Shown: positions 18,820 to 35,130, counted from the first letter of the stretch. The stretch is 64,000 nt of DNA from Candidatus Omnitrophota bacterium (GCA_041650835.1 JBAZKL010000004.1:166900-230899); one strand, 5' to 3'. Notes: generated from the letters alone by a model not told the origin. Numbers and translations are program-made.

Positions 18820-18840
18820 TATTTTTCTACTCAGAAATTC

Positions 18841-18910: not shown

Positions 18911-19140
18911 CGCAAGAAACAGACATAACCGTTTATTTTGCTCATCCTCGTTCTCCATGGGAGCGAGGTACAAATGAAAACACCAATGCTTTAATACGCC
19001 AGTATTTCCCCAAAACTACTGATTTTTCAAAAATCTCGAAAAATAGACTTAAAGAGGTACAGGACGAATTAAACGATCGTCCGCGCAAAACTCTTGGATG
19101 GTATACACCTCACGAAAAATTTACTGAACTGTTGCGTTAG
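18895..19140 (+). pseudogene. IS30-family transposase C-terminal fragment with right inverted repeat (gttgcgttagcaac at about 19130..19150)
   Basis: 81 aa nearly identical to the C-terminus of the intact IS30 transposase at 29671..30666 (ITVYFAHP.SPWERGTNENTN...DRPRKTLGW.TPHE.F.ELLR). Confidence 0.85.
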
Positions 19141-19342
19141 CAACTTGAATCTATCTAACACTAATTATTCCCCGCAACAGTTTTCCACCTATTTCAGGCG
19201 TGACAGTTGGCGGGATGTTTGGTTTATCGCTAAAATTGTTTTTCCATGCCATTCCTTACCTTTTCTTTCTATCTCATCGCTTTTTGCAATTCATAATTCT
19301 TTTTTGTTGTTCTCAAAAGAACATCACCCCTTTTACTAATCA

Positions 19343-22015
19343 TTACGGTTCCAGCTGCTTTTTGCGTTGCTTTCTTGTTTGATCACGACGACCAATAAGC
19401 TGCCTTGAAAAGTCCCTCAAGGAGCTTATATCAGCGAGCACTTCATCAGGTGCAGGACGATCACAATGCAAAGCCTTGGATTTGTCATGACCTGTCATCC
19501 AAGTACTAGCCTTAGATATATGAAGATCAACGCAATGAATATCAGAATCTTCAATAGCCACTCCATTGAGTCTGAGGGTCTGCACGCTGTTTCTGTATCG
19601 ACAAACTACCTTATCGAACAAATCATCCTCAATACAAGATTCCCAAGCTTCACGCAATAATCCGTAAACATAAGCCGCTTCTTTGTTGTACTCTACCATA
19701 TCTTGCTGATAAAAAGATTTAATCTTATTAACCAAATCTTCCAGGTATTGCGCCCGCTGTCCAACCTTCATGGCATGCCAAGGTACACTATTAATTGTAA
19801 TGCCCGCTGACTTTCCGTCACGGCGCAAAGTATGTACGGTGATACTAACTGGCGTACCGGCCTTGGCAAGCGCCATTCCGGCATCCTCCAATTCCATCAG
19901 GAAAGCTATGTTATGAGTAAATATAATGACCTGTCGTTTAAGCCCCTCTTTCGCGAGCCGTTCAGCAATCTTTCCAGTGAATATATGATCGAGCGATGAA
20001 ACTGGATCATCCAACACGATCGCGTTAACATGTGGGACAAGTTGAAGCTCAGCCAGAAAACCAGCAATTGCGATAACTCGTGCCTCACCTTCACTGAGAA
20101 TCTGAGAGATGCGTACCCGGCCTGATATATTAACGCCTTCCAACAAAATCTCGTGTGTAGTCTCCCCTACATCTCCACAAGGCTTAACCGATATAGACAA
20201 ACGATTCGCACCTAACGCAATAAGTTCCTTCTTAAAAGCACTTATCAACTCCGGAGTTAAGTTCTTCTTAATCACCACTGTGCCTTGCCGTGTAATTTCA
20301 TAAGTACTAAGGGTATCAGCCGCTCGCCGCAAATCGGCATTACGCCGAATCTTAGCAACAAGCGCGTAAATATCGACTTTCCTAGCGTTGAGCGCCTTCC
20401 GCGATTTAAGTTCTGTTATGCTGGCGATAAGCTTCTTATATTCCTCAGGCTTAGCCGCATTCGTAATTTCAGTAGCCTTTTGGGTTAATGTTTTGGCAAC
20501 CGATCGTAATGCTGCTTCTACAGATGCTGGCCATGGTGGCAATAATTTCGACCTTTGCGGATCTTCACCTTCTTTGAGTAAAACGAGTGCTGCAGATTTT
20601 CGCACGGCAATCGCTGTGTGATAGGTTCGCAAATCACTTGCCATCGGGACACCCAAACTACTAAGCTCATCACAAATCGAGTCAAGTGTTGCGGCAGTCA
20701 AAGGAGTCACAGCCTCTATCTTTTCCCTCAGCAACTTCAGCGCATTGCGCTTTGTAACTAACACAGTGTTTGTAGCATCTTCCATAAACTTCTTAAAACG
20801 GGCAAAACGGGCAACAGCCTCTTCACCTAGTGGTTGCTGGCAAAAAACACAGACCGCATCATCTGTTTTCGGAAAGGCCTGACCGGGGTAAGCTATCTCC
20901 TCAGAGTATTTCTTTGCTGCCTTATAGAGGATCTCCCATTGATCGGTGGAAGCAACACCTGGTAGCGTTTCGAACGTCTGCCGTTCAGCCACGGCAGCCG
21001 CACGTGCAAGCTGCGCAGCATTCACCTCTAATATAGCGTTCTGGATACCGTCATTCGTCAAATCAACGCACGCAGCTATGAGCTTTGTCACCGCACTTGC
21101 AGCATCGTTAATTCGCCCTTTAATTTTTTCGAGTCGGGCTACCTCTTGAGTTGCTTTCGTGGAATCTGATGTCCTCGCGAGCTCTTCTTGAGCAATCAAT
21201 TGTAACTCATCTTGCGGAGTCCAATTCGTCGCAGCTTGAATAACCTCTTCTTTGGTAGTCTCTAACAAAGACTCGAGAAATTTAGCTGCTGCGGTACCCG
21301 CCGCAATAGCTGAATCCTGAATCGGCATGATAGCCATTATCTCCGTTTCCACGTCTCCCCTAACTCTTTGGACGATCTCCGCCAGCTTCTGAAACACATC
21401 GCAACCATAGGGCAGATAGTTAATCTGATTTCGATCATCAGTAATGATTCGAGCGCAGCGTCCGTCAAATACTGTGATATTGGTCAAAACAGGGTCGACA
21501 GAAACACCTTGAGTCCAAGCAACATCCCTTGACTTATTATCCTGTTTAATCTTTATTATGGCGGTTGGCGCACCAGATGGTGCCTTAACGAAGACATTAG
21601 AAAGGATACGCTCATCCTTATCGCGGGCTTGGCACGCCAGTTTCAAGATTCGGGAATAACCAGACTTACCAGCGCCATTGTCACCATACACCACTGTAAC
21701 ACCACTCTCAGCGAAAGGCTGTGACGCGCCAGCCTTGATGATGTTGACATTTCTAACGTCATCAATTGATAGTAGTTTAACAGCAACTGTTGTTGTGGGA
21801 ACACCCGAGAAGTTACCCGCAACCGGGAGAATAGGCTTGAGTTTTTCGGGAAACGCTGCAATTTTTAAATCTGCTTTGGCCAAAGCCAATATCTCAGAAT
21901 AATCTTGAGCATTGAGCGGCTGGTCACCCTTAGTCAACAGACGACGAACAACGTCTCCTTGCCACGCAGGTAAAGAACTGGCCCATACAATAATATCGTC
22001 AATAGTAGCCATCAA
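19343..22015 (-). CDS. Rad50/SbcC/RecN-like ABC ATPase with long coiled-coil insert and ~75-aa N-terminal extension
   Basis: Walker A VVYGDNGAGKSGYSRIL, about 500 aa coiled coil, C-terminal signature/Walker B/H-loop (SEGEARVIAIA...IVLDDPVSSLD...IIFTHN); 890 aa. Confidence 0.8.
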   Translation of the reverse strand: MMATIDDIIVWASSLPAWQGDVVRRLLTKGDQPLNAQDYSEILALAKADLKIAAFPEKLKPILPVAGNFSGVPTTTVAVKLLSIDDVRNVNIIKAGASQPFAESGVTVVYGDNGAGKSGYSRILKLACQARDKDERILSNVFVKAPSGAPTAIIKIKQDNKSRDVAWTQGVSVDPVLTNITVFDGRCARIITDDRNQINYLPYGCDVFQKLAEIVQRVRGDVETEIMAIMPIQDSAIAAGTAAAKFLESLLETTKEEVIQAATNWTPQDELQLIAQEELARTSDSTKATQEVARLEKIKGRINDAASAVTKLIAACVDLTNDGIQNAILEVNAAQLARAAAVAERQTFETLPGVASTDQWEILYKAAKKYSEEIAYPGQAFPKTDDAVCVFCQQPLGEEAVARFARFKKFMEDATNTVLVTKRNALKLLREKIEAVTPLTAATLDSICDELSSLGVPMASDLRTYHTAIAVRKSAALVLLKEGEDPQRSKLLPPWPASVEAALRSVAKTLTQKATEITNAAKPEEYKKLIASITELKSRKALNARKVDIYALVAKIRRNADLRRAADTLSTYEITRQGTVVIKKNLTPELISAFKKELIALGANRLSISVKPCGDVGETTHEILLEGVNISGRVRISQILSEGEARVIAIAGFLAELQLVPHVNAIVLDDPVSSLDHIFTGKIAERLAKEGLKRQVIIFTHNIAFLMELEDAGMALAKAGTPVSITVHTLRRDGKSAGITINSVPWHAMKVGQRAQYLEDLVNKIKSFYQQDMVEYNKEAAYVYGLLREAWESCIEDDLFDKVVCRYRNSVQTLRLNGVAIEDSDIHCVDLHISKASTWMTGHDKSKALHCDRPAPDEVLADISSLRDFSRQLIGRRDQTRKQRKKQLEP

Positions 22016-22047
22016 TTACTCTCCAGGGTACCTGTCTACTGTAAAAT

Positions 22048-23580
22048 TCAGACTATTGGTCTATCCACTCCATCATCTTCCGATACATCAATAGGCAGTA
22101 AGGCGGTAGCCTCACCTACGGGAAGCTCCTGCACATCCTTGAGTTTTCTCCCGATGCCCCTTGACCTAACTTTAGCTTGTTCAATTGTGTCTGATGCTTG
22201 ATGTAACTTATTTTGCACTGCATCCAAAACATCGCCATACTTCGTCCACTCGGTTTTGACTGCAGCAAGAAGATTCCAGACCTCACTAGAACGCTTCTGG
22301 ATAGCAAGCGTTCGAAAACCCATCTGAAGACTGTTTAAAATAGACCATAGGGTAGTCGGACCAGCGATAACCACACGGCATTCCCGTTGGATAACCTCGA
22401 TCAAGCCCGTCCTACGAATGACTTCAGCAAAGAGACCCTCTATAGGTAAAAACAGAATACCGAAGTCCGTGGTTTTTGGCGGATTTAAATATTTTTTAGA
22501 GATGTCAGATGCACAAATCTTGACACGATTCTCCAACTGTTTACTCGCCGCTTCAACTCCTTCAATATCTGCTCTTTCTTGAGCCTCAATCAAACGCTGA
22601 TAGTCTTCAACAGGAAACTTAGCGTCAACCGGGAGCCAGACAACATCATCCTTATCAGTGCCTTTTCCCGGCAGTTTGATCGCAAACTCAACACGCTCGC
22701 CTCCCTCTTTCGTAGCCACGTTGATGCCAAACTGATCAGGATTGAGCACCTGCTCTAACAACGCCCCAAGTTGCACTTCACCCCACGTCCCACGTGTTTT
22801 GACATTTGTAAGTACCTTTTTAAGATCACCAACACCCGTAGCAAGCGTTTGCATCTCCCCAAGTCCTTTATGCACCATCTCCAGACGTTCACTGACTTGC
22901 TTAAAGGATTCACCCAAGCGCCTTTCCAATGTCCCCTGGAGTTTCTCGTCCACGGTCTGGCGCATTTGTTCAAGCTGCTTGGCGTTATCAATCTGCATGC
23001 TTTGAAGTTTACTTTCCACCGCGACCCTGACTGACTCCAGTTTTTTCTCATTTGAATCCGAAAGTCTACCAATCGCGGTTGACATAATTTCAAGTTGGGT
23101 TTTCTGAAGATTGGCCAATTCGCCCATTGTTTTAGTGGTGGCTTCCGTAATCCCCTTAAGAGTTGCAATAACCTCTTCCCTTAACTGTTTAGCTCCAGTG
23201 GCAGACTCGGCACGAACACCATCCAAGCGTTCACCGCTAGCCTTGGCGAAAGAAGCAAGTTGATTAGAAAAAACATCGAGTTGCCCCTTCTGCATATTGG
23301 CTATATCCATCATTCGTTGTACCACCGAATCGCCAAAGACTTTAAATGCTTCGGCGAGCTCCTGTCTTTGTTCTCTTGTCGTCTTACCCATTTCGTCTCT
23401 GCTCTGAGCCACTTCTTCTCTAACCGCATGCTCAGTACGTTCTTGTGCCTTTTCCAAAACATCAAGACGAGAGGCAATCAAAGAAGGATCAGTTTGGTAT
23501 AGTTTCTTTGAGATAACAAGCAAAACAGCTACCACGCCAACCAGCAAAACAAGAATCACAAATAACAGTATATTAATCAC
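22048..23580 (-). CDS. rmuC: DNA recombination protein RmuC family (TM anchor, coiled coil, RmuC nuclease-like domain)
   Basis: N-terminal TM, extensive coiled coil, C-terminal TTDFGILFLPIEGLFAEV...VIAGPTTLWSIL characteristic of RmuC. Confidence 0.8.
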   Translation of the reverse strand: MINILLFVILVLLVGVVAVLLVISKKLYQTDPSLIASRLDVLEKAQERTEHAVREEVAQSRDEMGKTTREQRQELAEAFKVFGDSVVQRMMDIANMQKGQLDVFSNQLASFAKASGERLDGVRAESATGAKQLREEVIATLKGITEATTKTMGELANLQKTQLEIMSTAIGRLSDSNEKKLESVRVAVESKLQSMQIDNAKQLEQMRQTVDEKLQGTLERRLGESFKQVSERLEMVHKGLGEMQTLATGVGDLKKVLTNVKTRGTWGEVQLGALLEQVLNPDQFGINVATKEGGERVEFAIKLPGKGTDKDDVVWLPVDAKFPVEDYQRLIEAQERADIEGVEAASKQLENRVKICASDISKKYLNPPKTTDFGILFLPIEGLFAEVIRRTGLIEVIQRECRVVIAGPTTLWSILNSLQMGFRTLAIQKRSSEVWNLLAAVKTEWTKYGDVLDAVQNKLHQASDTIEQAKVRSRGIGRKLKDVQELPVGEATALLPIDVSEDDGVDRPIV

Positions 23581-23618
23581 AAAAACCTCCTTAAAAATCC
23601 CTTAAACTCATAAAATTT

Positions 23619-23837
23619 TTATACTTTTAATAATAATCTAATCGTTTGCAATAAATTTCTGTTCAATTCCTGCTGATTTATTCCTACCATTACCTTGATT
23701 GCTCTTCGCAGATTGATTGTCATTGCTCTAATCGACCTACCTTGCTCTACCTTGGTCAACTCGCGAAAAGTTTTACGGTTTCCTTGATGTGCTTTAATTG
23801 TCTTTCCACACTTTGGGCATTTATTATATTGTATCAT
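23619..23837 (-). CDS. transposase-like zinc-ribbon/HTH fragment (possible IS remnant)
   Basis: CPKCGKTIKAHQGNRKTF zinc ribbon; preceded by the same ~115-bp family B element that precedes the IS30 transposase gene. Confidence 0.35.
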   Translation of the reverse strand: MIQYNKCPKCGKTIKAHQGNRKTFRELTKVEQGRSIRAMTINLRRAIKVMVGINQQELNRNLLQTIRLLLKV

Positions 23838-23937
23838 CGTATTTCCTTTCTTTAGTACTCACCTTCAGTCATCTGCCAGCCATAGCGCTTAAACAATTGC
23901 TCTGTTTTTGCCTAGTCATTCTCATTCAAATTTCATA

Positions 23938-24049
23938 GACGCTGTATCCAACCTACTATAATCCTTACACTTACAAAACAATTACTTCCGCCCAGCACAA
24001 AAGGATTGTTTTGCAACTCAAAGAAGCATTATCGGTTACGTATAGCGTC
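23938..24049 (+). repeat. family B ~115-bp inverted-repeat element copy 1 (terminal IR gacgctgtat / tatagcgtc; internal ATCCAAC and ttacaaaacaatt/aattgttttgcaa)
   Basis: near-identical copy at 30727..30837. Confidence 0.8.
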
Positions 24050-24162
24050 TAGGATTCCCCTTGCCATTTGCCTACCTCCCTCATCTGAATAGAATAGTAA
24101 ATCCCAACCGCCATCCATAATAAAATCCCGAAAGCTTTAAGATTCCATATATGTTTAACAAA

Positions 24163-25710
24163 TTAATAGTTTTTATTTTCGTCTTTATCTTTTAAATCTA
24201 AAGTTTTTCTGGCTTCTTTTACATCAATTTTAGCCTTGTGACCATGCTTCTCCAATAGATGTAACAGATTATTACCATTTAGTAATGTTAAAGGCTTATC
24301 TTGTGCAAACTTATATGCATCTGGACCATAATCGGTAGTTGTAACCAAAATTCCTTTCATAGCGCCTTCGTTCATTACAGTACCATATAAGTCTCGTACA
24401 GCAGATACCCCTACAATGTTTGTATATCTTTTAGCTTGTATAACAATTTTGCCTCCACGAACTGGATCTGGGTCAAAAGCTACTGCATCAACCCCTTCAT
24501 CTCTACTCGCCCTTGTAATTTTGACTTCGCCACCACTGGCTGCAAATTCCTTTTCAAATATTTCTCTAATGAGATTTTCAAAATCTTGCCAATCCATTGC
24601 TGCGATATTTGATTTTTCATCTACATTATCTACCACAGCATAGGGAGAGACAAACCTTTTATCCTCTCGGTTAATTTGCATAATAGGAGCTATAGCGGCA
24701 AGCCCGTGAAGTTTACTACTACCTATTCCTTTTAACTTTTTAAAACAAGTTTTTGGATCTACATTTTCTAAGTTAATTGCGAGAAAATCATCCCGAACAG
24801 CTTGAACCGACAAAATACATGCTACTGCTTCCTTGCCAGTTCCCTTGTCGATAAATCTTACATAACCATTAAATATTACGGAGGTGATCGTCCCCATGCT
24901 ATCATTTTTATATAGCTGGTAAATTGTTAATAAAGTAAGTTGGTATAATAAATCATCGTACAATTCATTAAAAGAACTGCCGGAAATATGCGATTCTTTA
25001 AACTCTGCTCTCGTGTCGTTATATTTAACTTCCTTTAGTGTGGGGATGTTTTCTTTTGATGGCAAAAAATAGTCTATAAGTAATATTCCCGACTCTGGAT
25101 TAAAATCAATTTGAAATTCTTGAGGAAATGTTTCCGGATAAAAAGATTGGCATTTTGATAGAAACATTTCGCAGTAATCTACAATTGCGTCTTTTTGTTT
25201 ATTGAAATAGTCTCCTTTTCGCTTTATGATTTCTTGGTTTTTTTCTTCTCTATTTTTAAAAAAATCTTCCCCTTCTTTTTCCCATTTCAAAACATCATCA
25301 TCATACTGTGTTAACATCTTTGAATTCTTCTCGGTTATCGATGAGCATGCTCTTTCCCATTCTAAATGTGCTTTTTGGAAATTATTCTTCATTTCTTCAA
25401 TTTCTTTCTGCTTTTCTTCAGGAAAAAGTATACCAAATAATGTACCTACCTTTGGCTTAAAAGATGGGTCTATCTCATGCGGCTCTTTCGGCAATTTTAA
25501 TGGTTTGGGCGAGAGAGGTTTTCTTTTTGAGTATTCTGATTTATCTAATAAATCCTCCCAAATAATGGTTGGAACTGTTTTTATAGATTCTTTTAAAATA
25601 TTTTTAATCCTACTTAGCTTTTCTTCTGCCTCTTTTGTCTTTACAGCTGCTAAGTCTTTTTTGTTCGACGGCAATAGTTTATAGATAGATTCTTTATCAA
25701 TAATAATCAT
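24163..25710 (-). CDS. Mrr-like restriction endonuclease catalytic domain protein with uncharacterised ~370-aa N-terminal region
   Basis: C-terminal DEGVDAVAF...KIVIQAKRY...GILVTTTDYGPDA matches the Mrr_cat (PD-(D/E)xK) pattern; N-terminal part lysine/glutamate-rich without a recognisable motif. Confidence 0.7.
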   Translation of the reverse strand: MIIIDKESIYKLLPSNKKDLAAVKTKEAEEKLSRIKNILKESIKTVPTIIWEDLLDKSEYSKRKPLSPKPLKLPKEPHEIDPSFKPKVGTLFGILFPEEKQKEIEEMKNNFQKAHLEWERACSSITEKNSKMLTQYDDDVLKWEKEGEDFFKNREEKNQEIIKRKGDYFNKQKDAIVDYCEMFLSKCQSFYPETFPQEFQIDFNPESGILLIDYFLPSKENIPTLKEVKYNDTRAEFKESHISGSSFNELYDDLLYQLTLLTIYQLYKNDSMGTITSVIFNGYVRFIDKGTGKEAVACILSVQAVRDDFLAINLENVDPKTCFKKLKGIGSSKLHGLAAIAPIMQINREDKRFVSPYAVVDNVDEKSNIAAMDWQDFENLIREIFEKEFAASGGEVKITRASRDEGVDAVAFDPDPVRGGKIVIQAKRYTNIVGVSAVRDLYGTVMNEGAMKGILVTTTDYGPDAYKFAQDKPLTLLNGNNLLHLLEKHGHKAKIDVKEARKTLDLKDKDENKNY

Positions 25711-25735
25711 TATTTTTCTCCATACTTAACAAATA

Positions 25736-25859
25736 GCAAGACGTTTTATCCAACATCATAATTATCAACGCGTTACAAAACAATTTCTTAATCTTATCTG
25801 TCTTCAGCATTTGTTATGCAACTTAATAACGAAGAAATAGTTAGACAAAACGTCTTATT
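25736..25859 (+). repeat. family C ~120-bp inverted-repeat element copy 1 with integron-core-like ends (ATCCAAC ... GTTAGAC)
   Basis: caagacgttttATCCAACat...ttacaaaacaatt...aataGTTAGACaaaacgtcttatt; terminal IR aagacgtttt/aaaacgtctt. Confidence 0.8.
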
Positions 25860-25885
25860 AATATCGTTTTTGTCATAATTTCCAT

Positions 25886-26356
25886 TTATCCGTTCAAGTC
25901 GGGAACAGTATACTCGATAAGTCTATCCTCAAGATTTCTTCTCTCCACATCCGAGAGATTACTGGTCTGGCAAAACCATAATTTTATTCTTTTGCGTTTG
26001 TAATGATTAAGAACAAATTTGTTTATTTTGCAGTTAGTAGATTGACCCCTTACAAAACAATTACGAGGACTTATTAGCCCGTAACCACTATTTATACGAT
26101 TATACAAATCCTGGCATTCTCCAACATAGCGGATTTTGTTATTTAGTGTAAAAAAATAGAGTCCACTTCTCCCACTCCACTTCGGGAGAATCTTGAATCC
26201 ACAAAATCCACCTTTCCCATATCTGTGTAAAGCATACCCTTTCTTGTTATCATATCGGCTTTGCGGATAACTAATGATTACGGTACCATTCTTACTGCGC
26301 ATTAACTCTATCTTACAAACCTCGAGAAAAACAAAACCTAAAATCTTCTTAATCAT
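25886..26356 (-). CDS. GIY-YIG nuclease-domain protein
   Basis: GLYFFTLNNKIRYVGECQDLYNRIN (GIY...YVG...R...N) and downstream conserved Glu (RRNLEDRLIE). Confidence 0.65.
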   Translation of the reverse strand: MIKKILGFVFLEVCKIELMRSKNGTVIISYPQSRYDNKKGYALHRYGKGGFCGFKILPKWSGRSGLYFFTLNNKIRYVGECQDLYNRINSGYGLISPRNCFVRGQSTNCKINKFVLNHYKRKRIKLWFCQTSNLSDVERRNLEDRLIEYTVPDLNG

Positions 26357-26419
26357 TTCTTAAGTAATATTCCAAAGTTCTTTTATTCTATTTACTATAT
26401 GCTGCCATTTTTTTGAATA

Positions 26420-26515
26420 GCAAGACGTTTTATTCAACATTATGATTCTCAACGCGTTACAAAACAATTCATTAATCTTATCTGTCTTCAGTATTTGTTA
26501 TGTAACTAAAAAACG
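26420..26515 (+). repeat. family C element copy 2 (right end diverged)
   Basis: caagacgttttATTCAACat...ttacaaaacaatt... Confidence 0.75.
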
Positions 26516-26524
26516 AATATAGGA

Positions 26525-26650
26525 AAAAACAGTATCTGAACTCGATGACTATCTAAAATTATTGGACTTATGAATTAATTCCGCACCTTGCCGATTTTAT
26601 TCCTAATTTATTTGATTCCAGTGAGTTATTGAGTTCTGACACCAATTATC
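26525..26650 (+). repeat. family A element copy 6
   Basis: aaaaaacagtatctgaactcgatgac ... GAGTTCTGACACcaatt. Confidence 0.85.
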
Positions 26651-26707
26651 TAATTCTAAAGAGATAAACCATCTTACATCGGCACGTATTGGCCAATACT
26701 TAAAACC

Positions 26708-29389
26708 TCAACTTCCGATCAAACGCTTTAGTCTCTTAGCCGCATCTCTTGTTTCTTGCGCAAATTGATGTTTTGCTAAAAAAGCATCATCAACAAACCC
26801 AAGTGACTTCGTTATAAAGTCAGTACCGTACTTAAACCAATTGGGCTTCTCTTTAAAATAAGCCTCTACCGCCGGCTTGGCTTTTTCGATAACCCCATCT
26901 ATATCTTTTAGTTTCGAATATTTAGCAGTATCTATATCATTCAAAATCTTTATATTTAGTTCTTCAGAAACAGGTTTCTCTGAAAATTTCCACTCGGTAT
27001 ATGCTTTTAATGTTTCCCGATTTATAGCTTGATTAAGAAAAATATCCTTTTCTGAATCGCTAATTATTTCTTTATCTCGTCTTTTAATCTCCTCAATAAC
27101 CTTCTGCAAGTTTCTAAATGATTCGTAAATTGGAATATCAATGAAACCTTTAATTTTTCTATCACGTTTATTTTTCTGAACAAATTCTAAGTTATATTTT
27201 GTACCATTAGTATTCAAATTTATTATTAAATAATTTGCGGAATTTTCATTTACCAGGTTTTTATGATTTTCGTAATACTTTTCAGACATATCTTTTATTA
27301 CTAGGATTTGTCGGCTATATTTGGGAATTTTACGGTAGAAACAAAGATGGGGTATTTTACTATTTATAACATCTTCTCTTATCGATACCATAGTTGAGCC
27401 AAAGAGATTTGGATCAGGAGGAAAGCTTGCAAGCAAAAGATTAGTTAGCTGAACATAATTCTTAAAAAATCGCTCCATTATAATAATAATTTGGTTTTTG
27501 AATTGTTCTATATAAGCAATGATCTTCTTTGTTTGATTCTCTAATACTTCCCTGGGAATATGTTGGGGTATATTTTTTTGTAATTTCTCTAGATATTTTT
27601 GATTGCTTTGATAAATAGTTAGCACATCCATATCGCAATATTGTTGTATGTCATTATTATGTACTTTCGTTTCATCATATCCCTCTTCTGGTTTTTCGTC
27701 TTTTACAAGAATTCTTATATCGTCAACCTCATTTACATATAAAGAAAACTTCTCTAGGCTCTCTAAGAAATTATTTTCATAATCTAGCAGTACTTGCGGA
27801 GTAGCTGGAACGACCATTTTTGATTGTGTCCAGGCATATGCGTAAAACGCAATATTCTTGCCCTCAATTGTTTTTACAATCTCGCCTTTTAATAAAATTA
27901 CGCCTAATCTTAATAAATATTCTATTAAATTTTTCTGAGCTAAATATATTCTTAATTGTAGATTATCTTCACGAGTAGGCGGATCTTTACTTAAATGTAA
28001 TTCTTGAAAAAAGGGAATATCAATAAATTTATAGAGCCCGGTTAATAATAGATTATTTTGGTACCAGCAAGAAGGAGCCCAATATTTATTTAAATCAAAT
28101 ATTTGCCCAAGTGCTTTCTGAATATTTGCATGAAAAAGCTCTGTTTCTTCAAAGGACTCAATCTGTAAAACCGGCCTATCTTCCTTATCATAATCACTTA
28201 TGTAATCTCTAATCCTAAAATGCAGTTCAAAGAAATCTGATTTCGCTTGGTAACAAAGAAGATTCCTGAAATCTTGATATATTTGCTTATCGATAAATTT
28301 ATCCTTCGATTCGTCAATTATTTCATCAACATATGCTTCTAAATCGTCAAAATTAGGACGACTAATAAATATTTTGTCATTAAAGAATGTGTAAGCTATT
28401 TCTCTCTCTTCTTTTGATTTTTCAACAACATCATAAATATCCTTCCCAGCTATAAAAACAAAGAGCCCAGAAGATAGCGTAAATAAATTCTTGAAGGTTT
28501 TTATAATATCTGTTATCTTGACTCTCTCGGTTTCTTTAATCTTATCCATTTCATCTATAACAAAAATTATTTTGGAAGATTCTTTCGATAATGAAATCTC
28601 ATCCAAGAGGGCATAAAGATCATATTCTAGGTTACTAATACTTTTGTCAGTTATATATAATTCTTCAACAGAACTGCTCTCGCTTGCTTTTTTACTTTTT
28701 GTTATACTCTTTAATATTTTGTATGATAGCGTCTTTGGTAAAAGAAAGGACAAAGAACCTAATAAAATATTTAAAACTAGATTCTCTTTAGTCGACAAAT
28801 AGAAAAAGCTCATACCAACAATTATCCCTAAAGAGCTAAGGAAATTTCTTATTTGTTCAGAATCAACGCTATATTTTCCTTCTATTTCTTGCTGATCATT
28901 TTCTTCCTGTTCTGTTTCCTTTTTCAATTTAATTTCTTCTTTAATTTCCGATTTTTCAGAAATTGCTTTTTGATACAGCTTACCTAATTTTCTCTGTGAA
29001 TCATCATCTAGCTTGCTTCTCGCGGCAGTATATAATCTTCTTATTAAATTAATAATTATCTTTTCTTCTAGTCTCTCTGGACTTATTTCTAGAACGTCTT
29101 TACCTTCTGCTAAACTTTCTTCAATAAGCAGCTGAGATGCATTAATCAAAACAGGAATAATCTTTTTATTCTTTGCCGTAGCTTTATATAAAGCTTCATA
29201 AACCAGAGCTGTCTTACCAACACCTCGCTCACCACTGACCAAAAGACAACCCTTTTCTCTTCTTAAGAACCAATTTTCAATTTTATTTCTTTCCTCTTTT
29301 CTTCCAACAAAATGTCCCTGTGGTTTTTCATAATGAGGAAAGTAATCCCAGTCTTTTTTAAGTGCCAATTTTAATTCTTCATTTACCAT
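26708..29389 (-). CDS. KAP-family P-loop NTPase (Walker A, TM-helix insertion, Walker B) with large C-terminal region
   Basis: FVGRKEE...GERGVGKT Walker A; two hydrophobic helices (IIVGMSFFYLS...LLGSLSFLL) inserted before Walker B KIIFVIDEMD; 893 aa, extremely A+T-rich gene. Confidence 0.7.
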   Translation of the reverse strand: MVNEELKLALKKDWDYFPHYEKPQGHFVGRKEERNKIENWFLRREKGCLLVSGERGVGKTALVYEALYKATAKNKKIIPVLINASQLLIEESLAEGKDVLEISPERLEEKIIINLIRRLYTAARSKLDDDSQRKLGKLYQKAISEKSEIKEEIKLKKETEQEENDQQEIEGKYSVDSEQIRNFLSSLGIIVGMSFFYLSTKENLVLNILLGSLSFLLPKTLSYKILKSITKSKKASESSSVEELYITDKSISNLEYDLYALLDEISLSKESSKIIFVIDEMDKIKETERVKITDIIKTFKNLFTLSSGLFVFIAGKDIYDVVEKSKEEREIAYTFFNDKIFISRPNFDDLEAYVDEIIDESKDKFIDKQIYQDFRNLLCYQAKSDFFELHFRIRDYISDYDKEDRPVLQIESFEETELFHANIQKALGQIFDLNKYWAPSCWYQNNLLLTGLYKFIDIPFFQELHLSKDPPTREDNLQLRIYLAQKNLIEYLLRLGVILLKGEIVKTIEGKNIAFYAYAWTQSKMVVPATPQVLLDYENNFLESLEKFSLYVNEVDDIRILVKDEKPEEGYDETKVHNNDIQQYCDMDVLTIYQSNQKYLEKLQKNIPQHIPREVLENQTKKIIAYIEQFKNQIIIIMERFFKNYVQLTNLLLASFPPDPNLFGSTMVSIREDVINSKIPHLCFYRKIPKYSRQILVIKDMSEKYYENHKNLVNENSANYLIINLNTNGTKYNLEFVQKNKRDRKIKGFIDIPIYESFRNLQKVIEEIKRRDKEIISDSEKDIFLNQAINRETLKAYTEWKFSEKPVSEELNIKILNDIDTAKYSKLKDIDGVIEKAKPAVEAYFKEKPNWFKYGTDFITKSLGFVDDAFLAKHQFAQETRDAAKRLKRLIGS

Positions 29390-29431
29390 GTTTTCACCTC
29401 TTTATTGATTACAATGATTCTGATCTGAATA

Positions 29432-29558
29432 AAAAAACAGTGTCAGAACTCGACAACTATCTAAAACTATTGGACTTGTGAATTAATTCCGTGACTTGCT
29501 GATTTTATTCGTAACTTATTTATTTACTGTAAGTTATTGAGTTCTGACATTAATTATT
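29432..29558 (+). repeat. family A element copy 7
   Basis: aaaaaaacAGTGTCAGAACTCgac ... GAGTTCTGACAtTaatt. Confidence 0.85.
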
Positions 29559-29644
29559 CAATTGCAATCTTATCAATTCAGACAGTTTACTCAATTCACG
29601 CATATCCGCTAAATGAAGCGACTGATAGTAATTCTCCTTATAGA

Positions 29645-30716
29645 ATTTCATAGACTGTAGATTCAAATTACTAACGCAACAACTCGCTGAATCTTTCGTG
29701 AGGCGTATGCCAGCCAAGAGTTTTTCTTGGCCGGTCGTTTAATTCATCTTGAACTTCTTTTAATCTGGTCCTTGAGATCTTTGAAAAATCTGTTCCTTTA
29801 GGGAAATACTGCCTTAATAAGGAATTTGTGTTTTCATTAGTTCCCCGCTCCCAGGGGGAATGCGGGTGAGCAAAATAAACGGTTATTTTTGTTTCTTTTG
29901 TAAATAGCTTATGCTGACACATCTCACCACCCTGGTCGTAGGTAAGCGTTCTTTTCAATCCTGGGGGTAAACTGCGGAATTCTTCGCCAAAAGATCTTCT
30001 GATAGTTGAGGCGTCCTGGTTCCGTAGTTTTACTAAGAAGGCCATGCGTGTCGTACGCTCAACGAGGGTTCCAATGGCTGAGGCATTACGTCGCCCGATT
30101 ATTAAATCGCCTTCCCAGTGTCCAGGGATAGTGCGGTCGGCTACTTCTTGCGGGCGTTCTTCGATGCTAAAGTAATCCTGTATGCTGCCTGGTTTCCCTC
30201 GTCTGCCATCTTTTTTGCGGCGGTATTTATGGTTTCTTCTAAGATAAGATATAAGCCTGCGCTTGAAGGTGCCGCGAGGTAAAACATAGATATGGGAGTA
30301 AATTGTTTCGTGAGAGACGCGCATAGACATATCATTAGGATACAATACAATGAGTCTCTTGGCAATCTGTTCAGGTGACCAGTTTTTTGTTAAATAAGAA
30401 AGAACGAGTTTTCTTAACAGCGCGTTAGTGGCAAGTTTACGATTCTTGCGTATCTTGTGACGCGTTTTGATCGACTGCTGCTGAACGAAAATAGCACGGT
30501 AATATTTTAATTCTACTACCCCTGACTGACGTATTTCTCTGGATATACTACTGGGCGACCTGTTGAGAATACCGGCTATTGTTCGCAAACTGGATCCTAA
30601 TGCAATTTGACGGCTGATCTCTTCGCGCTCAAAGAGCGAGATTCGGTGATATTTTATCATTCGCAACTCCTTTCATCCGCTATTATAGCAGATTAAAGTG
30701 TTGCGTTAGTTGCTTG
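29645..30716 (-). mobile_element. intact IS30-family insertion sequence (about 1.07 kb)
   Basis: terminal inverted repeats ...ttactaacgcaacaac (left) and gttgcgttagttgc (right) flank a full-length transposase gene. Confidence 0.8.
29671..30666 (-). CDS. IS30-family transposase (DDE)
   Basis: N-terminal HTH, HWEGDLIIG, ...YFAHPHSPWERGTNENTNSLLRQ... IS30 signature; 331 aa. Confidence 0.9.
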   Translation of the reverse strand: MRMIKYHRISLFEREEISRQIALGSSLRTIAGILNRSPSSISREIRQSGVVELKYYRAIFVQQQSIKTRHKIRKNRKLATNALLRKLVLSYLTKNWSPEQIAKRLIVLYPNDMSMRVSHETIYSHIYVLPRGTFKRRLISYLRRNHKYRRKKDGRRGKPGSIQDYFSIEERPQEVADRTIPGHWEGDLIIGRRNASAIGTLVERTTRMAFLVKLRNQDASTIRRSFGEEFRSLPPGLKRTLTYDQGGEMCQHKLFTKETKITVYFAHPHSPWERGTNENTNSLLRQYFPKGTDFSKISRTRLKEVQDELNDRPRKTLGWHTPHERFSELLR

Positions 30717-30726
30717 AGTCTAAGGA

Positions 30727-30837
30727 CCGCTGTATCCAACCTACTATAATCCTTACACTTACAAAACAATTAGATAGGTTCAAGCAAAAGAATTGTTTTG
30801 CAACTTAAAGAAGCATTATCGGTTACGTACAGCGTCC
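30727..30837 (+). repeat. family B element copy 2
   Basis: ccgctgtATCCAACctactataatccttacacttacaaaacaatt...aattgttttgcaactt...ggttacgtacagcgtcc. Confidence 0.8.
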
Positions 30838-30865
30838 TTAGGATTTCCATGACTCCTTAAACCTA

Positions 30866-31783
30866 TTAATGTATGCCAGGAAGCTGAATAACCTTTTGCG
30901 ATTGTATAAAGGCAGCTCCCATATGGTTTTCGATAATTTTACAAGCAGTGGTACTGGATAAAGTATGAATAAAAGTATGATGTACACTCAATGCAGCATT
31001 TTGAATGTCTTGGTTGTCTTCTAACATTGATATGATCAAACCGATCTCTTTACACCTCTCAGGGGGCAGATGTCTTGAATGAGATAATGTTTCATCATGG
31101 CTTCCTATTACACTGACAATTTTGTTAATAGAATCAGTTTTTTGAGGTTCGGGTAAATTCGCAAACATTCCTGTGCCCAACCATTTCTTAACAAGATACT
31201 CTGACCAAGTAATTGCCTTTTGACATTCGCCAATAAATGCTGGAGGATATTTAGCAATTATTGGTTGCCAAACTGGTATTTTTGCAGAATCCAGTTTAAT
31301 CTCCTCATAAGCTTTCGAGAATTCTTCAATCACACCGTGACATGGTATTCCATTAAATTGAGGATCTATTGGACCCAAGCTGGAATGTTTCCCCATTAGT
31401 ACTTCTTTACAAGCACATGCTATCATTGTACCACCAGACATTGAAAGCTGCGGAACGATCGCTCTTATATTAGTCCCAAATAAACTCCTCAAGTAATCAA
31501 CAAGAGATTCTGTAGCAGCAGTTTCACCTCCCGGAGTATGCAAAATCAAATCTAATCCTTTCGACCAATCCATACCTTTTAAGGCTGACATAAATCCATT
31601 TTTATCATTGTCATTTATAGAAACCAGTTGGGGATCAGCCTTTTTTTGCAGCCATCCTGAATAATAAGCAATTACATTACGTCCTGTTAAATCATATAAT
31701 TTTTTTAAATAGCTGCGCCGAACAATATCTTGCGTACTACCAAGTTGGTGTATTTCTTCTCCTAATTCTTTCCAATTACCCAT
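30866..31783 (-). CDS. SDH-family (S49/ClpP-fold) serine protease
   Basis: LILHTPGGE and SMSGGTMIACAC motifs typical of the ClpP/SppA fold (serine dehydrogenase proteinase family); 8-bp overlap with upstream small ORF. Confidence 0.65.
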   Translation of the reverse strand: MGNWKELGEEIHQLGSTQDIVRRSYLKKLYDLTGRNVIAYYSGWLQKKADPQLVSINDNDKNGFMSALKGMDWSKGLDLILHTPGGETAATESLVDYLRSLFGTNIRAIVPQLSMSGGTMIACACKEVLMGKHSSLGPIDPQFNGIPCHGVIEEFSKAYEEIKLDSAKIPVWQPIIAKYPPAFIGECQKAITWSEYLVKKWLGTGMFANLPEPQKTDSINKIVSVIGSHDETLSHSRHLPPERCKEIGLIISMLEDNQDIQNAALSVHHTFIHTLSSTTACKIIENHMGAAFIQSQKVIQLPGIH

Positions 31784-32009
31784 TGTTTATCTCCAGCCCT
31801 ACAGTATCTGTAGTTATCATAATATTCCAAGTACTCCCTGATCTTTCCATGGTTAAATCATTCCTCAATCCTTCAAAAGGATTTGGAATCTTCAAAAGTT
31901 CGTATAATTCAATAATCTCTTTATCAGTGAATTTTTTCATAATAAGACAACCTAAAGAAAATATTTGCAGCGGGGCTATAGCCTTCCCAAACCAGCCAAA
32001 TAATTCCAT
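31776..32009 (-). CDS. small protein translationally coupled to the SDH protease
   Basis: 77-aa ORF overlapping the protease start by 8 bp. Confidence 0.45.
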   Translation of the reverse strand: MELFGWFGKAIAPLQIFSLGCLIMKKFTDKEIIELYELLKIPNPFEGLRNDLTMERSGSTWNIMITTDTVGLEINNG

Positions 32010-32038
32010 TCGTCATTTTTGAACCTTTTCTACCCCCG

Positions 32039-32170
32039 CAAAAAAAACAGTGTCAGAACTCGATGACTATCTAGAATTATTGGACTTGTGAATTAATTCC
32101 GCGTCTTGCCGATTTTATTCGTAATTTATTTATTTACAGTGAGTTATTGAATTCTAACGCTAATTATTTA
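32039..32170 (+). repeat. family A element copy 8 (abuts cyclase stop codon)
   Basis: aaaaaaaacAGTGTCAGAACTCgatgac ... GAaTTCTaACgCTaatt. Confidence 0.85.
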
Positions 32171-33124
32171 TCGAAACCTCACCTTATGAACTTTATAAGG
32201 TTTATCGTCTTCACCTTTATACTGCCAATCATCTCTTAGTTTTATCTCGTTGCAGCCTTCGCGCCACGTTGTATGTAAATTCCTCTCGGTTATATCTCCC
32301 AGAAGGATATCTCCTGGATTACCTAAGCTCTGAATTTTCGCGGCTAAACTAACAACTGAACCAATTATGTCCTTGTGCCTTTTTGTGTTAGGGCTACCGA
32401 TAGCTATTATACAGGCATCTCCAGAATCTAAGCCTATTCTAATATTGATGGTAGGGTAACCATTTTCCTCAAGCATTTGATTTACTCCACTATATATCAG
32501 CCTTCTTACTGTTAAAGAGCAGTCTAGAGCCAAATCATTTTTTATTATAAAGCTTGGCTCAGGGAAATATGCTATCAGCCCATCTCCGGTATATTTTAAA
32601 ACATGCCCATGGAACTTAGGAACAATTTCGCTCATTTCATATAAAATGACAGATATTAATTTCGCATATTTCTGGAGATCCAGGCTTTTTGATAGCTTTG
32701 TTGAACCAGCTAAATCTACACACATAATAACGAATCCCAAGCTATCAGTGGCTAATGACTCCAAGAACTCTTCTGACTTATCCTTAAAAACATAAGGTTC
32801 TTCTTCCGATTTTAATCTTTCACGAATCAACGGTATTCTCTCTTGAATATATTTCTCTGCATCACCGATTTCTTGCCGTTGCAGATACATTGGCTTTCCA
32901 GCTAATTGCTTTGCAAAATCAGCAAATACGTTTTCAGGAAAAATAATTTTATCAAATTTATCATATAAATACCGCTTCCCATTTATGTCTTTCCATTCAT
33001 ACCTTCTGGGGTCTGGGAGTAATCTCACTGTAAATATCTTTTTATCATCATCCACAGAAATAACTTCTTGAACAAAGTCCATCCTAAAAGCTTTGGTCTT
33101 ATCAGACACGCTTGAATTCTCCAT
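32168..33124 (-). CDS. class III nucleotidyl (adenylate/guanylate-type) cyclase with ~130-aa N-terminal extension
   Basis: cyclase-homology-domain motifs VIMCVDLAGSTKL, KYTGDGLIAYF, IRIGLDSGDACI, GSVVSLAAKIQS. Confidence 0.75.
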   Translation of the reverse strand: MENSSVSDKTKAFRMDFVQEVISVDDDKKIFTVRLLPDPRRYEWKDINGKRYLYDKFDKIIFPENVFADFAKQLAGKPMYLQRQEIGDAEKYIQERIPLIRERLKSEEEPYVFKDKSEEFLESLATDSLGFVIMCVDLAGSTKLSKSLDLQKYAKLISVILYEMSEIVPKFHGHVLKYTGDGLIAYFPEPSFIIKNDLALDCSLTVRRLIYSGVNQMLEENGYPTINIRIGLDSGDACIIAIGSPNTKRHKDIIGSVVSLAAKIQSLGNPGDILLGDITERNLHTTWREGCNEIKLRDDWQYKGEDDKPYKVHKVRFR

Positions 33125-33144
33125 ATCTTTTATTTAACTATCTT

Positions 33145-33609
33145 TTATTCGCCATAGTAACTTATTAGCCATATAGCTAAGCCAGCCAAAACTAATTTTC
33201 CTATAAATTTTTTATTTTCGACCTGCACCTTCAGTATATCTAAATAGTTATCCGCATTTATATATGCCTGCTTGGGGTTATTCTTATCAAACTCTATATA
33301 TTCTTTTCCTACCAATACTCCTTTTAAGGTAACCCCTTTCTCAACAATCGGTACAACAGGAATTTTGAAAGCATTCGCAGTAGCAATCTCTTGATTAACT
33401 ATGTCGGAGCGCGATCCGTCAATTGTCATTATAGCTAACACACAACTACTATTTCTTATATTTGCCTGTATCTTACCCCACAAATCAGTACCGGGTTGCG
33501 CATCAAGAACAGCCAAGTATACCTCTATTCCTTTCAGCCTTAATATATTGGCAAATTCATCAACAATCTGCATATCTTTTGTGCTGTGGCTAATAAAAAC
33601 ATTCATCAT
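33145..33609 (-). CDS. TIR-domain protein with C-terminal transmembrane helix
   Basis: MMNVFISHSTKD (FISHS TIR hallmark), conserved Glu in VNQEIATA, C-terminal LVLAGLAIWLISYY hydrophobic helix; 154 aa. Confidence 0.75.
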   Translation of the reverse strand: MMNVFISHSTKDMQIVDEFANILRLKGIEVYLAVLDAQPGTDLWGKIQANIRNSSCVLAIMTIDGSRSDIVNQEIATANAFKIPVVPIVEKGVTLKGVLVGKEYIEFDKNNPKQAYINADNYLDILKVQVENKKFIGKLVLAGLAIWLISYYGE

Positions 33610-34100: not shown

Positions 34101-34699
34101 AAAATAAAGCAACATAAAAATGACGATAAAGTATTAAAGATAGAGGGGTTTTATGCGAGTTCTAACCTTCAAAATCACTTGGTTACGTCAGATATGGACT
34201 TCCCAAGGTGACAGTCACAAAGTACGTGACAGTCACCTTGGGTTTCGCCCGCCACAAAAGCTTTGGCGGGCTCGCGGCATTGGTATATCTGTGATCGATT
34301 GGCAGTATCCCTAATCGTATAAAAAAGATTGCTTCGCCCTTTCAGGGCTCGCAATGGGCATAATGGTTATTTTGTGTTGTTATTTGAGCTCTATTATCTT
34401 TTGAATTCGACAAATGTCGACGGAAACTTTATATTAAATACTCATTACACTATTTCAATTATTGAACCGGTTTAATATATGATAGTAATATTTGTTCTAT
34501 CTTATAGTAAAATCAACATGTTGTAAATATGGGCAGCAACACTTTTTAACCATTATGCCCGCAATGACACAAGTGTCGGATTCCCGCATAAACGCTAAGG
34601 CAGTATCGGCGGAAATGACAGGAGAAAAGAACAAAAAAGTGACTGGCACAAAATACGTGAGCAGTCACTTTTTAAATACTAAATATTGGCTCTAATTTC

Positions 34700-35045
34700 G
34701 ACTTCTTCTATATGTTGCGAAAAACTAGCTAACGAAGATTCCTGCTCGTTCATGAGCGCATAACTTACGCGACCACAGGAAGCGTAAGTTATTTGCGCGA
34801 ATGAATCCCGAGCTCCCCTAACTTTCCCTGTCAGGAGCGAGGGATCTACGTTCATCGCTAACAAAGATTCCTGCTCGTTCTTCTTCGCTCCCCTACCACA
34901 AAAAACTCCGGTGGAGCTTCGAAGGAACCGAGTCAGATGCAACAAAGGCTCCTGCTCGTCAGATGCCTCGCAGGAATCCGCTGTTTTTCTTTAAATGTTG
35001 CGTCAAACCAGCTCGTTGAGGCTGGTTTGACGCTATAGGAAAAAC
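34700..35045. repeat. array of hairpin repeats downstream of tRNA-Ser(GGA) (family E copy 1)
   Basis: repeated gattcctgctcg...cgcaggaatc, ataacttacgc...gcgtaagttat and aaaccagc...gctggttt hairpins; homologous arrays at 44935..45240 and 51650..51972. Confidence 0.8.
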
Positions 35046-35047
35046 AG

Positions 35048-35130
35048 CGGAGAGGCAGGGATTCGAACCCTGGGACCTTGCAGTCACGCGCTCTCCAAGC
35101 GCGCGCATTCGACCACTCTGCCACCTCTCC
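35048..35130 (-). tRNA. tRNA-Ser (anticodon GGA)
   Basis: minus-strand cloverleaf: acceptor GGAGAGG/CCTCTCC, anticodon stem CGCGC/GCGCG with loop TTGGAGA, long variable arm, T-arm CAGGG-TTCGAAT-CCCTG, discriminator G. Confidence 0.85.

Follow-up and report, generated by a model that had tools for sequence, protein, structure and literature searches.

Long palindromic repeats part the gene modules of an integron-like defence island at a tRNA-Ser gene in Candidatus Omnitrophota

Three families of imperfect palindromes, here termed A, B and C, part the co-oriented genes of an island in a MAG of Candidatus Omnitrophota, an uncultivated bacterium, of which we analysed one stretch of 64,000 nucleotides (the window). 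Both the repeats and their long hairpin go far beyond chance. We propose, at a probability of roughly one half, that A, B and C are lineage-specific, non-coding, unitary palindromic repeats, about 130 bp in length and REP/ERIC/MITE-like, and, at the same even odds, that they fill the intergenic spaces of a hypervariable defence/accessory island at tRNA-Ser(gga) in one genus-level Omnitrophota group. They probably act as 3′-end hairpins and as recombination-prone module boundaries. An earlier note on this DNA had suggested that some of these repeats are integron attC sites; the elements fail every discriminating attC test, so that the island is integron-like in layout only, and we infer that no integron integrase acts on them.

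The variable array lies downstream of tRNA-Ser(gga), has a low GC content (31–43%) and carries all of its genes on the minus strand. Its cargo is mostly defence, comprising a Pycsar-like cyclase with TIR, an SDH protease, a STAND NTPase and a type IV restriction endonuclease, together with RmuC and a PDC-S06 ATPase, TrmO, an FMN reductase and an esterase. Simple terminator hairpins of other kinds are also repeated within the island. Its main landmarks are as follows.

11625–34172, minus strand: gene array of about 22 kb, co-oriented single genes or small gene groups parted by A, B and C elements
35047–35130, minus strand: tRNA-Ser(gga), the proximal anchor of the variable array, conserved in three of three related genomes
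29658–30722, minus strand: IS30-family insertion sequence that encodes an HTH_38+rve transposase and is bounded by terminal inverted repeats of 24 nt

The B and C copies, including a C fragment near 11625, were all found where the earlier note had placed them, with slightly different limits.

23926–24058, minus strand: B1, complete B element (HMM extent; 23938–24049 in the earlier note)
30716–30848, minus strand: B2, complete B element (earlier 30727–30837)
25732–25861, minus strand: C1, complete C element, the unit being defined by cross-genome homology (earlier 25736–25859)
26414–26522, minus strand: C2, C element without its 5′ (R″-side) arm (earlier 26420–26515)
11625–11662, minus strand: C fragment behind the esterase gene, reduced to the final part of the 3′ arm (GAGAATTATGATGTTGATCAAAACGTCTTGTTATT, approximately 36 nt)

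These five align as one architectural family, and a full-length alignment of B with C upholds the shared left part, inner inverted partner and outer inverted repeats described earlier: common to both are TTACAAAACAATT, its inverted partner and the outer inverted repeats. The gap between ATCCAAC and TTACAAAACAATT, given before as 22 nt, is actually 18 nt, and the pattern with 22 nt has no match. Because all genes are on the minus strand, the elements are read in gene orientation as ACGTAAC...GTTGGAT (B) and GTCTAAC...GTTGGAT (C1). Thus B1, approximately 100 nt downstream of an Mrr-type restriction endonuclease gene, reads GACGCTAT-ACGTAAC-17 nt-GTTGCAAAACAAT-loop-AATTGTTTTGTAA-17 nt-GTTGGAT-ACAGCGTC; its homology with B2 reaches about 30 nt further left than the HMM extent. 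B2 follows the SDH-protease gene after 18 nt, with arms approximately 97% identical to those of B1 and a different 13–14-nt loop, and the IS30-family element sits at its base, parting it from the conserved downstream flank. C1, located 25 nt downstream of a 156-aa ORF, combines the cores GTCTAAC...GTTGGAT with a 10-bp outer stem (AAGACGTTTT/AAAACGTCTT). The arm that C2 lacks is the one at its high-coordinate end, where the break falls approximately at the AAC position and the element is fused directly to the T-run of an A copy (26520–26656).

The third family, A, occurs in the same array.

12638–32177, minus strand: family A, 10 copies of a palindromic element of about 133–145 nt, all co-oriented with the genes
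15804–15949, 16199–16342, 17433–17574, 26520–26656, 29419–29567 and 32029–32177, minus strand: full A copies
12638–12712, 13081–13123, 18240–18384 and 18836–18919, minus strand: truncated A copies

In 12 of 14 A copies, an A-rich tract and the hairpin come with a T-run of 3–8 behind the stem. The element carries stop codons in all three frames, and two ORFs terminate within its TAAATAAATAA. Its most conserved part is the unpaired centre.

Each element is a self-contained imperfect palindrome that starts 0–100 nt after a stop codon, and every A, B and C copy is co-oriented with the genes (15 of 15 in the window and six of six in the sister genome G2). Pairing was found in 86% of cells, against 33–48% when the partners were slid as a control, and ten pairs showed compensatory changes on both sides. 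The hairpins of B and C accept G·U-type pairs on the sense strand only. The sense strand of B and C holds 25 G·T against 4 A·C cells, and its fold is the more stable one by 1.2–4.5 kcal/mol in every full copy; A shows no such G·T bias once an invariant A·C mismatch is counted, which speaks against our preferred explanation. In an intrinsic terminator, the transcribed strand has a T-run immediately behind a G+C-rich hairpin. A clear T-run is missing from B and C, which therefore have no evident role as terminators, and a simple terminator scan called none of A, B and C because their stems are too long.

These observations bear on a purely regulatory reading, in which the elements are 3′-end hairpins (terminators or mRNA stabilizers) inherited along with their genes from a common donor pool and have no mobility or recombination role of their own. 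The sense-strand folding bias of B and C, the position directly after stop codons, the A-rich tract, hairpin and T-run of most A copies with their stops in three frames, and the repeated simple terminators of the island would all suit it. We nevertheless regard it as quite improbable: hairpins of about 130 nt with a conserved interior go far beyond the needs of a terminator, B and C lack the T-run, the best-conserved part of A is unpaired, one C unit stands behind unrelated genes in two genomes, and the same gene is found with and without elements.

That the layout resembles an integron was correctly recognized in the earlier note: genes of one orientation are parted by nested palindromes, and the island has no integrase in view. 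On the attC reading, the elements could be bona fide attC sites, and the island would be either a CALIN or a section of a sedentary chromosomal integron, with its intI located beyond the window; we hold this to be extremely improbable. In any palindrome, one arm automatically supplies the motif complementary to the other. The R box of attC consists of R″/R′ with a conserved AAC/GTT triplet (consensus RYYYAAC/GTTRRRY), and attC sites range from 57 to 141 bp (PMC5027507). The elements measure 112–135 nt, which falls within this range, and stand 7–100 nt past stop codons; the cores of C1 are perfect (GTCTAAC/GTTGGAT), those of a sister C copy (L012) read GTTTAAC/GTTAAAT, and B, previously said to end in GTTACGT with one mismatch, indeed reads ACGTAAC in gene orientation. 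However, the window contains 99 RYYYAAC motifs where 112 ± 10 are expected, a chance frequency at which a core match carries little weight. The earlier observation is confirmed in part: the repeats are real, the core-site motifs at chance.

Fold geometry and strand spoke against attC sites. Each arm of an attC site has an unpaired central spacer of 5–6 nt (UCS) followed by the L box, and one arm carries two or three extrahelical bases, the first and last a 6-bp stem apart; the recombinogenic strand is the bottom one, at least as stable as the top and enriched in purines and G. We folded B1, B2, C1 and the C copy of L012 on either strand. The predicted folds contained internal loops and no single-base bulges, and their arms were equal in length; in each arm, 17 nt that form short helices and internal loops part the R-box pairing from the inner stem, with 7–8 nt unpaired at the L-box positions. 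By contrast, the same folding tool gave two single-base bulges 6 bp apart on both strands of the control aadA1 attC, single-base bulges in the cmlA1 and estX attCs too, and bottom strands at least as stable as the top in these controls. The bottom-strand fold that the earlier note had called for thus lacks extrahelical bases and belongs to the less stable strand, opposite to mobile-integron attCs; the would-be bottom strand (the plus strand of the window) contains 46–50% purines, and of five elements measured, four have a negative GC skew on this strand and one a skew of approximately zero. Moreover, the stem runs 8–16 bp past the R box and homology extends 20–40 nt beyond the GTT in four different contexts. 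Nor is the GTT invariant: B-like copies in L012 and L016 read ATTAGAT and ATTAAAT, that is, ATT instead of GTT, and A copies have ATT, TTT or AAT at this position.

Sites in an integron array are chimeras produced by the G|TT crossover, in which R″ is complementary to the R′ (TTRRRY) of the preceding site. In a control class 1 integron (L018), all six positions were complementary to the preceding site in five of six cassettes, against two to five of six in situ, and three of three further readable junctions (L020) agreed with chimeric sites. At the cross-family junctions of the island, by contrast, the left arm matched its own right arm at nine of 12 positions and the preceding element at two to three of 12. 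We based a proxy attC covariance model on 13 class 1 attCs; it scored 29.5–77 bits on real sites, including 90- and 114-nt sites, and found one of two hold-outs; with filters off, its best scores in the window were 8.2–9.9 bits (E 3.6–10), which is noise, with no matches on B1, B2 or A and one partial 9.8-bit match inside C1. In the part of the 366-kb contig that was covered, no tyrosine recombinase occurred among the window ORFs scanned (most of those of at least 140 aa) and none in the 10 kb past the left end of the window; two complete sister arrays held none either, and tblastn with IntI1 returned no intI gene or remnant. Absence of an integrase nearby would also fit a CALIN. We largely rejected attC sites, and with them the CALIN reading of the earlier note, on fold geometry (no extrahelical bases), strand (the wrong one), chimerism (unitary arms), GTT invariance (ATT for GTT) and the proxy model (noise).

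Comparison of genomes located the same elements in changing company. In two sister genomes, A, B and C elements occupy the same tRNA-Ser locus among genes that are almost entirely different; the three genomes are 92–95% identical in common genes, yet their arrays hardly overlap. C1 is 88% identical to the C copy of a sister genome, which stands behind a different gene, and in both genomes the unit has sharp boundaries. In this genome an A copy stands on either side of the FMN-reductase gene, which in L016 has no flanking element; homology ends 14 nt ahead of the start and, at the other side, at the stop codon. L016 also has a methyltransferase inserted beside the tRNA, a gene difference without an element. 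Seven truncated copies all have different breakpoints, which fits illegitimate or homologous recombination and not one fixed crossover point. No A, B or C copies were found in approximately 66 kb of flanking core DNA of these genomes, and nothing related in GTDB species representatives, viral contigs, plasmids, phages or Rfam. Classical REP and MITE families are dispersed genome-wide, and confinement to arrays within the approximately 100 kb of these genomes inspected therefore counts against a REP/MITE-like reading.

Strict co-orientation and array confinement would also be expected of a site-specific cassette system, again a point against our preferred explanation. In such a non-canonical, integron-analogous system, a recombinase encoded elsewhere in the genome (a tyrosine or HUH-type single-stranded DNA enzyme, or a very divergent IntI) would recognize the folded element, and gene-plus-hairpin modules would be excised and inserted downstream of tRNA-Ser. 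We consider this unlikely, although the near-total replacement of array content between close genomes, the position at the 3′ ends of compact modules, the variable loop between the near-identical arms of B1 and B2, and the inner stem TTACAAAACAATT/AATTGTTTTGYAA, conserved across B, C and B-like copies and a candidate protein-binding inverted repeat, would all accord with it. So would the cargo, since a preprint (10.1101/2024.07.02.601686) reports similar defence cargo in sedentary chromosomal integrons. On the other side, the three complete arrays and their surroundings hold no recombinase except the IS30 transposase, elements at cross-family junctions are never chimeric, truncated copies break at many positions, and genes differ also where there are no elements, as with the L016 methyltransferase and the FMN reductase. 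Rather improbable, in our judgement, is the bolder version in which the array is an independently evolved integron analogue, its modules, many of them anti-phage, being captured downstream of tRNA-Ser and shuffled via approximately 130-nt sense-strand hairpins (A, B and C) that an unlinked putative recombinase or nuclease recognizes, with geometry and strand choice unlike those of attC/IntI.

For the unitary repeats that we favour, the hairpin would form either in the transcript or, in DNA, where the sense strand is exposed on the lagging-strand template, and could serve as a 3′-end, terminator or insulator structure, with stop codons in three frames and a T-run as additions in family A. Through their recurrence between unrelated genes, the units would represent portable homology and fragile palindromes, at which gene modules may be inserted, deleted and swapped, and the outcome would be an integron-like array without integron chemistry.

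If this ordinary reading holds, the elements are three new structured intergenic repeat families from a phylum without cultured members and the island is a clear case of a tRNA-anchored defence island with modules delimited by palindromes, one easily mistaken for a CALIN by automated annotation. If the hairpins are true recombination sites, they would reveal a second way of capturing cassettes, one that does without integrons, and could supply new tools for DNA-hairpin recombination. The chimeric-site test, in which a left arm is compared with its own right arm or with that of the preceding site, is reusable, cheap and light on assumptions, and tells real attC arrays from look-alikes.

Among known systems, integron attC sites and CALINs share with the elements an imperfect palindrome of attC length at the 3′ ends of co-oriented compact modules, a variable defence-rich array, AAC/GTT triplets (in the C arms) and the lack of a nearby integrase. 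Unlike attC sites, the elements have neither extrahelical bases nor UCS/L-box geometry, fold better on the sense strand, extend stem and homology past the R box, are never chimeric, vary at the GTT and score as noise in the proxy model. The REP/BIME/REPIN and ERIC repeats of proteobacteria are intergenic, non-coding, imperfect palindromes of about 100–130 nt at gene 3′ ends, forming transcribed-strand hairpins with conserved arms and a variable loop and serving as insertion-sequence targets; REP/REPIN repeats are abundant and dispersed, with a cognate RAYT (Y1 HUH) gene. By these descriptions, the elements agree in hairpin, intergenic 3′ position, variable loop and IS insertion, and differ in being strictly co-oriented and limited to one island with no RAYT in view; they are not known to resemble any described family in sequence.

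MITEs such as Correia/NEMIS are small, non-autonomous elements with terminal inverted repeats and sharp boundaries that may carry promoter or terminator signals; their hallmarks are the terminal inverted repeats with a target-site duplication, and ends that match a transposase-encoding IS. Inverted termini, sharp boundaries and occurrence behind unrelated genes are, by description, common to both. The elements differ in lacking dispersed copies in the approximately 66 kb of core DNA and a target-site duplication, none being present next to four C ends and eleven A copies; transposase ends did not match either, as the inverted repeats of the one IS in view, of the IS30 family, are unrelated. 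The failure to find a target-site duplication, cognate transposase or RAYT leaves self-mobility of the elements hypothetical and speaks against our preferred explanation. The fallback offered in the earlier note, a MITE-like family that converged on the attC shape, comes closer to the evidence, but departs from it in these two respects, duplication and dispersal. Finally, the PeSL 'mobile regulatory cassettes' of T4-type phages, as reportedly described by Arbiol et al. in 2010, are promoter/stem-loop units that flank novel ORFs in hyperplastic regions and are said to let recombination shuffle gene modules with no dedicated integrase involved. PeSL units are short phage early-promoter stem-loops, unlike the 130-bp palindromes beside a tRNA gene on a bacterial chromosome; both are repeated stem-loop units beside the genes of a hypervariable region.

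Between 8 kb and 64 kb of the window all genes lie on the minus strand, and the variable array begins downstream of a tRNA-Ser(gga) gene (35047-35130) that adjoins recN. The interval 11.6-34.2 kb is low in G+C and is made up of genes, singly or in small groups, with palindromic elements of families A, B and C between them; A is more abundant than B or C. The cargo is largely defence.

Elements and cargo of the array (window coordinates; genes on the minus strand)
11625-11660: C fragment, a 36-nt part of the C 3′ arm
12638-32177: family A, 10 copies of 133-145 nt, outer stem AGTGTCAGAACTC/GAGTTCTGACACT
23938-24049: B1, a B element with arms almost identical to those of B2
25736-25859: C1, about 90% identical to C2
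26420-26515: C2, lacking the 5′ arm and fused to an A copy
29658-30722: IS30-family insertion sequence with 24-nt inverted repeats and an HTH_38+rve transposase, adjoining B2
30727-30837: B2, a B element whose central loop differs from that of B1
within 19343-33609: PDC-S06-type ATPase adjoining RmuC
within 19343-33609: type IV methyl-directed restriction enzyme (Mrr_cat)
within 19343-33609: STAND-like NTPase, 893 aa
within 19343-33609: SDH-type protease and its 77-aa partner
within 19343-33609: PycC-like cyclase preceded by a TIR protein (Pycsar-like)

A sigma-70 promoter scan yielded no enrichment, with 66 sites against 53 +/- 7, and no consistent promoter in the A, B and C elements. The distal edge of the island (9147-9929) holds a 260-aa protein whose domain resembles a transpeptidase/class D beta-lactamase; SnoaL-like and small proteins of unknown kind are its neighbours, with no repeat elements between them. 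Further out, three 246-bp tandem repeats (2990-3727) lie in a 713-aa protein in which a NiFe-hydrogenase small subunit is fused to Big_6 immunoglobulin-like domains.

All B and C copies reported in the earlier note (B1, B2, C1, C2 and the fragment at 11625) were recovered at their positions, although C2 proved to be incomplete. The left part said to be shared by the copies, ATCCAAC...TTACAAAACAATT, likewise exists, but with a spacer of 18 nt rather than 22 nt. Alignment of B with C over the full length revealed a single architecture. On the minus strand, the 5′ half opens with an outer stem, which leads through a 7-mer with AAC at its end and 17 nt to the inner stem GTTGCAnAACAA, followed by a loop, after which the 3′ half continues with AATTGTTTTGTAA, 17 nt, GTTGGAT and the outer stem. 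The central loop (13-14 nt) differs between B1 and B2 despite their near-identical arms. Support for the B/C hairpin is good: 86% of cells are paired, compared with 33-48% when the partners are slid, and changes on both sides at ten pairs provide compensatory support. The downstream flanks of B1 and B2 are conserved for about 30 nt, that of B2 being interrupted by the IS30-family element. We rejected the idea that B is part of this insertion sequence, which has its own inverted repeats, B1 being found without it. The B2-specific loop TAGGTTCAAGCAA (30775-30787) is similar to the terminal bases of the insertion sequence, TAGACTCAAGCAA; the likeness could be a coincidence, or reflect a targeting signal or a footprint. 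The B/C signature 13-mer TTACAAAACAATT, for which about 0.002 exact occurrences per window are expected, is also found unchanged at 26050-26062 within a 156-aa ORF between C1 and C2, with no inverted partner nearby.

The 5′ end region of family A contains TAAATAAATAA, which places a stop codon in each of the three frames, and the 3′ end carries a T-run. Its best-conserved part is the unpaired centre (...TTACGAATAAAATCGGCAAGnnnnnGAATT), kept in all four truncated copies. The TrmO gene (18352-18819) has a truncated A copy on either side, and the two copies overlap in this centre, a pattern resembling insertion or replacement of the gene via recombination inside A. An apparent half-A site at about 34165 was dismissed, its sequence being homologous to an unrelated sequence in the sister genome.

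The earlier note had suggested, from core-site motifs (ATCCAAC/GTTAGAC), that B and C may be integron attC sites and that the island could be an attC cluster lacking an integrase (CALIN). These motifs are uninformative, because RYYYAAC occurs in the window at chance frequency (99 observed, 112 +/- 10 expected) and a palindrome automatically yields the complementary motif. We compared the elements with the defining features of attC sites (PMC5027507). For B1, B2, C1 and the sister C, the predicted fold of either strand contained internal loops but no single-base bulges; extrahelical bases were missing. B and C also lack a 5-6-nt spacer leading into an L box. The same folding tool returned two single-base bulges 6 bp apart for the aadA1 attC, and single-base bulges also for the cmlA1 and estX attCs. 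The would-be bottom strand of B/C was less stable by 1.2-4.5 kcal/mol and neither purine- nor G-rich, and the sense strand of the stems held 25 G.T cells against 4 A.C cells. The stem extends past the putative R box by 8-16 bp. In four different contexts the copies stay homologous for 20-40 nt beyond GTT, which counts against attC because crossover between G and TT should end homology there. In both sister genomes the B-like copies have ATT in place of the GTT triplet, which varies in A as well.

Arm pairing across junctions gave a further comparison. In a sul3-type class 1 integron used as a control (L018), R'' was complementary at 6/6 positions to R' of the preceding site in five of six cassettes, and at only 2-5/6 to its own in-situ R'; three further readable junctions of a second control (L020) agreed with this chimerism. 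At the Omnitrophota between-family junctions (A>B2, B2>A, C>A), the left arm always matched its own right arm (9/12), versus 2-3/12 for the preceding element; same-family junctions do not discriminate, the left arm of A giving mixed results for the better pairing with the preceding A copy that an attC model predicts. The A, B and C elements are unitary palindromes. A proxy covariance model, built from 13 real attCs and distinct from IntegronFinder's own, scored real attC sites at 29-77 bits (90- and 114-nt sites included) and found one of two hold-outs; over the window, with filters off, its best score was at most 9.9 bits (E 3.6-10). No integrase was found among the scanned window ORFs, in 10 kb beyond the left end or in two complete sister arrays; with IntI1 as query, tblastn searches of the window and the sister loci returned noise and no intI remnant. 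Together, geometry, strand, boundaries, chimerism, triplet, proxy model and integrase search do not support the attC/CALIN interpretation; the note's fallback, a MITE-like family converged on the attC shape, comes closer.

When metagenomes were scanned with the conserved centre of A, one contig was retrieved; protein look-ups extended it (L013) and identified a third genome (L016). Shared genes are 92-95% identical across the three genomes. In all three a variable array follows the same tRNA-Ser directly on its downstream side, and the gene contents of the arrays hardly overlap. The second genome has four A copies, half of a B-like element and one complete C, which is 88% identical to C1, follows a different gene and reads GTTTAAC...GTTAAAT. 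The third has an A fragment and a B-like element with a 115-nt loop insertion. Genes in common (for example, an esterase and a 443-aa protein) differ in order and neighbours between genomes. Copies of A lie on either side of the FMN-reductase gene in this array and none of the elements flanks it in the third genome; homology between the two extends from 14 nt upstream of the start to the stop codon. In two further strains the contigs stop at RecN, and a 70%-identity relative lacks the array at this locus. Flanking core DNA, about 66 kb in all, yielded no A, B or C copies. An exact-pattern scan of GTDB species genomes for the B/C signature gave four matches, all chance; viral contigs gave one chance match to this pattern and none to the A centre. 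BLAST of B1, C1 and A against plasmids and phages matched nothing, and Rfam, at gathering and relaxed thresholds, returned only tRNAs and noise.

The same hairpin-repeat pair lies behind each of three tRNA-Ser genes (anticodons gga, cga and tga).

tRNA-Ser genes with hairpin-repeat pairs
34700-35130
45060-45350
51790-52210
12178-13233 of the third genome

In the third genome a methyltransferase gene lies exactly between tRNA-Ser(gga) and the pair; insertion at the tRNA 3′ end thus also occurs without any A, B or C element. A separate hairpin family, AAAAGGTGACAGTCAC...GTGACTGTCACCTTTT (34196-34290 and 34640-34700; 15960-16000 and 16900-16945 in the third genome), looks like a bidirectional terminator; it is repeated in two of the arrays, one copy lying within the enlarged loop of the third genome's B-like element. 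An ORF-less conserved module occurs twice in this array (minus strand, 16205-15948 and 34172-33943) and once in the sister genome (L013, 1349-1637). It combines a promoter close to consensus (TTGATT-17 nt-TATAAT) with a ribosome-binding site, an ORF of 8 codons (MQRL[C/F]H[F/S]L) and a strong terminator hairpin, and could be a small RNA or leader peptide.

The A, B and C elements are strictly co-oriented with transcription and, judged by GC skew, with replication. With their sharp boundaries behind unrelated genes, their sense-strand bias and the stops and T-run of A, this orientation makes it most likely that they are REP/ERIC/MITE-like structured intergenic repeats acting at the 3′ ends of island genes. 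That a hairpin-specific recombinase encoded elsewhere acts on them is unlikely, though it would fit with their confinement to the array, their strict orientation and the inner inverted repeat conserved in B and C; there is a small chance that they represent a new cassette-capture system. Truncated copies are many and have differing breakpoints, and differences in gene content coincide with elements. This suggests, under the preferred reading as intergenic repeats, a role as homology patches and fragile palindromes at which modules, such as TrmO between its truncated A copies, would be exchanged. The elements form a new set of structured repeats that mark module boundaries in a tRNA-anchored, integron-like Omnitrophota defence island.
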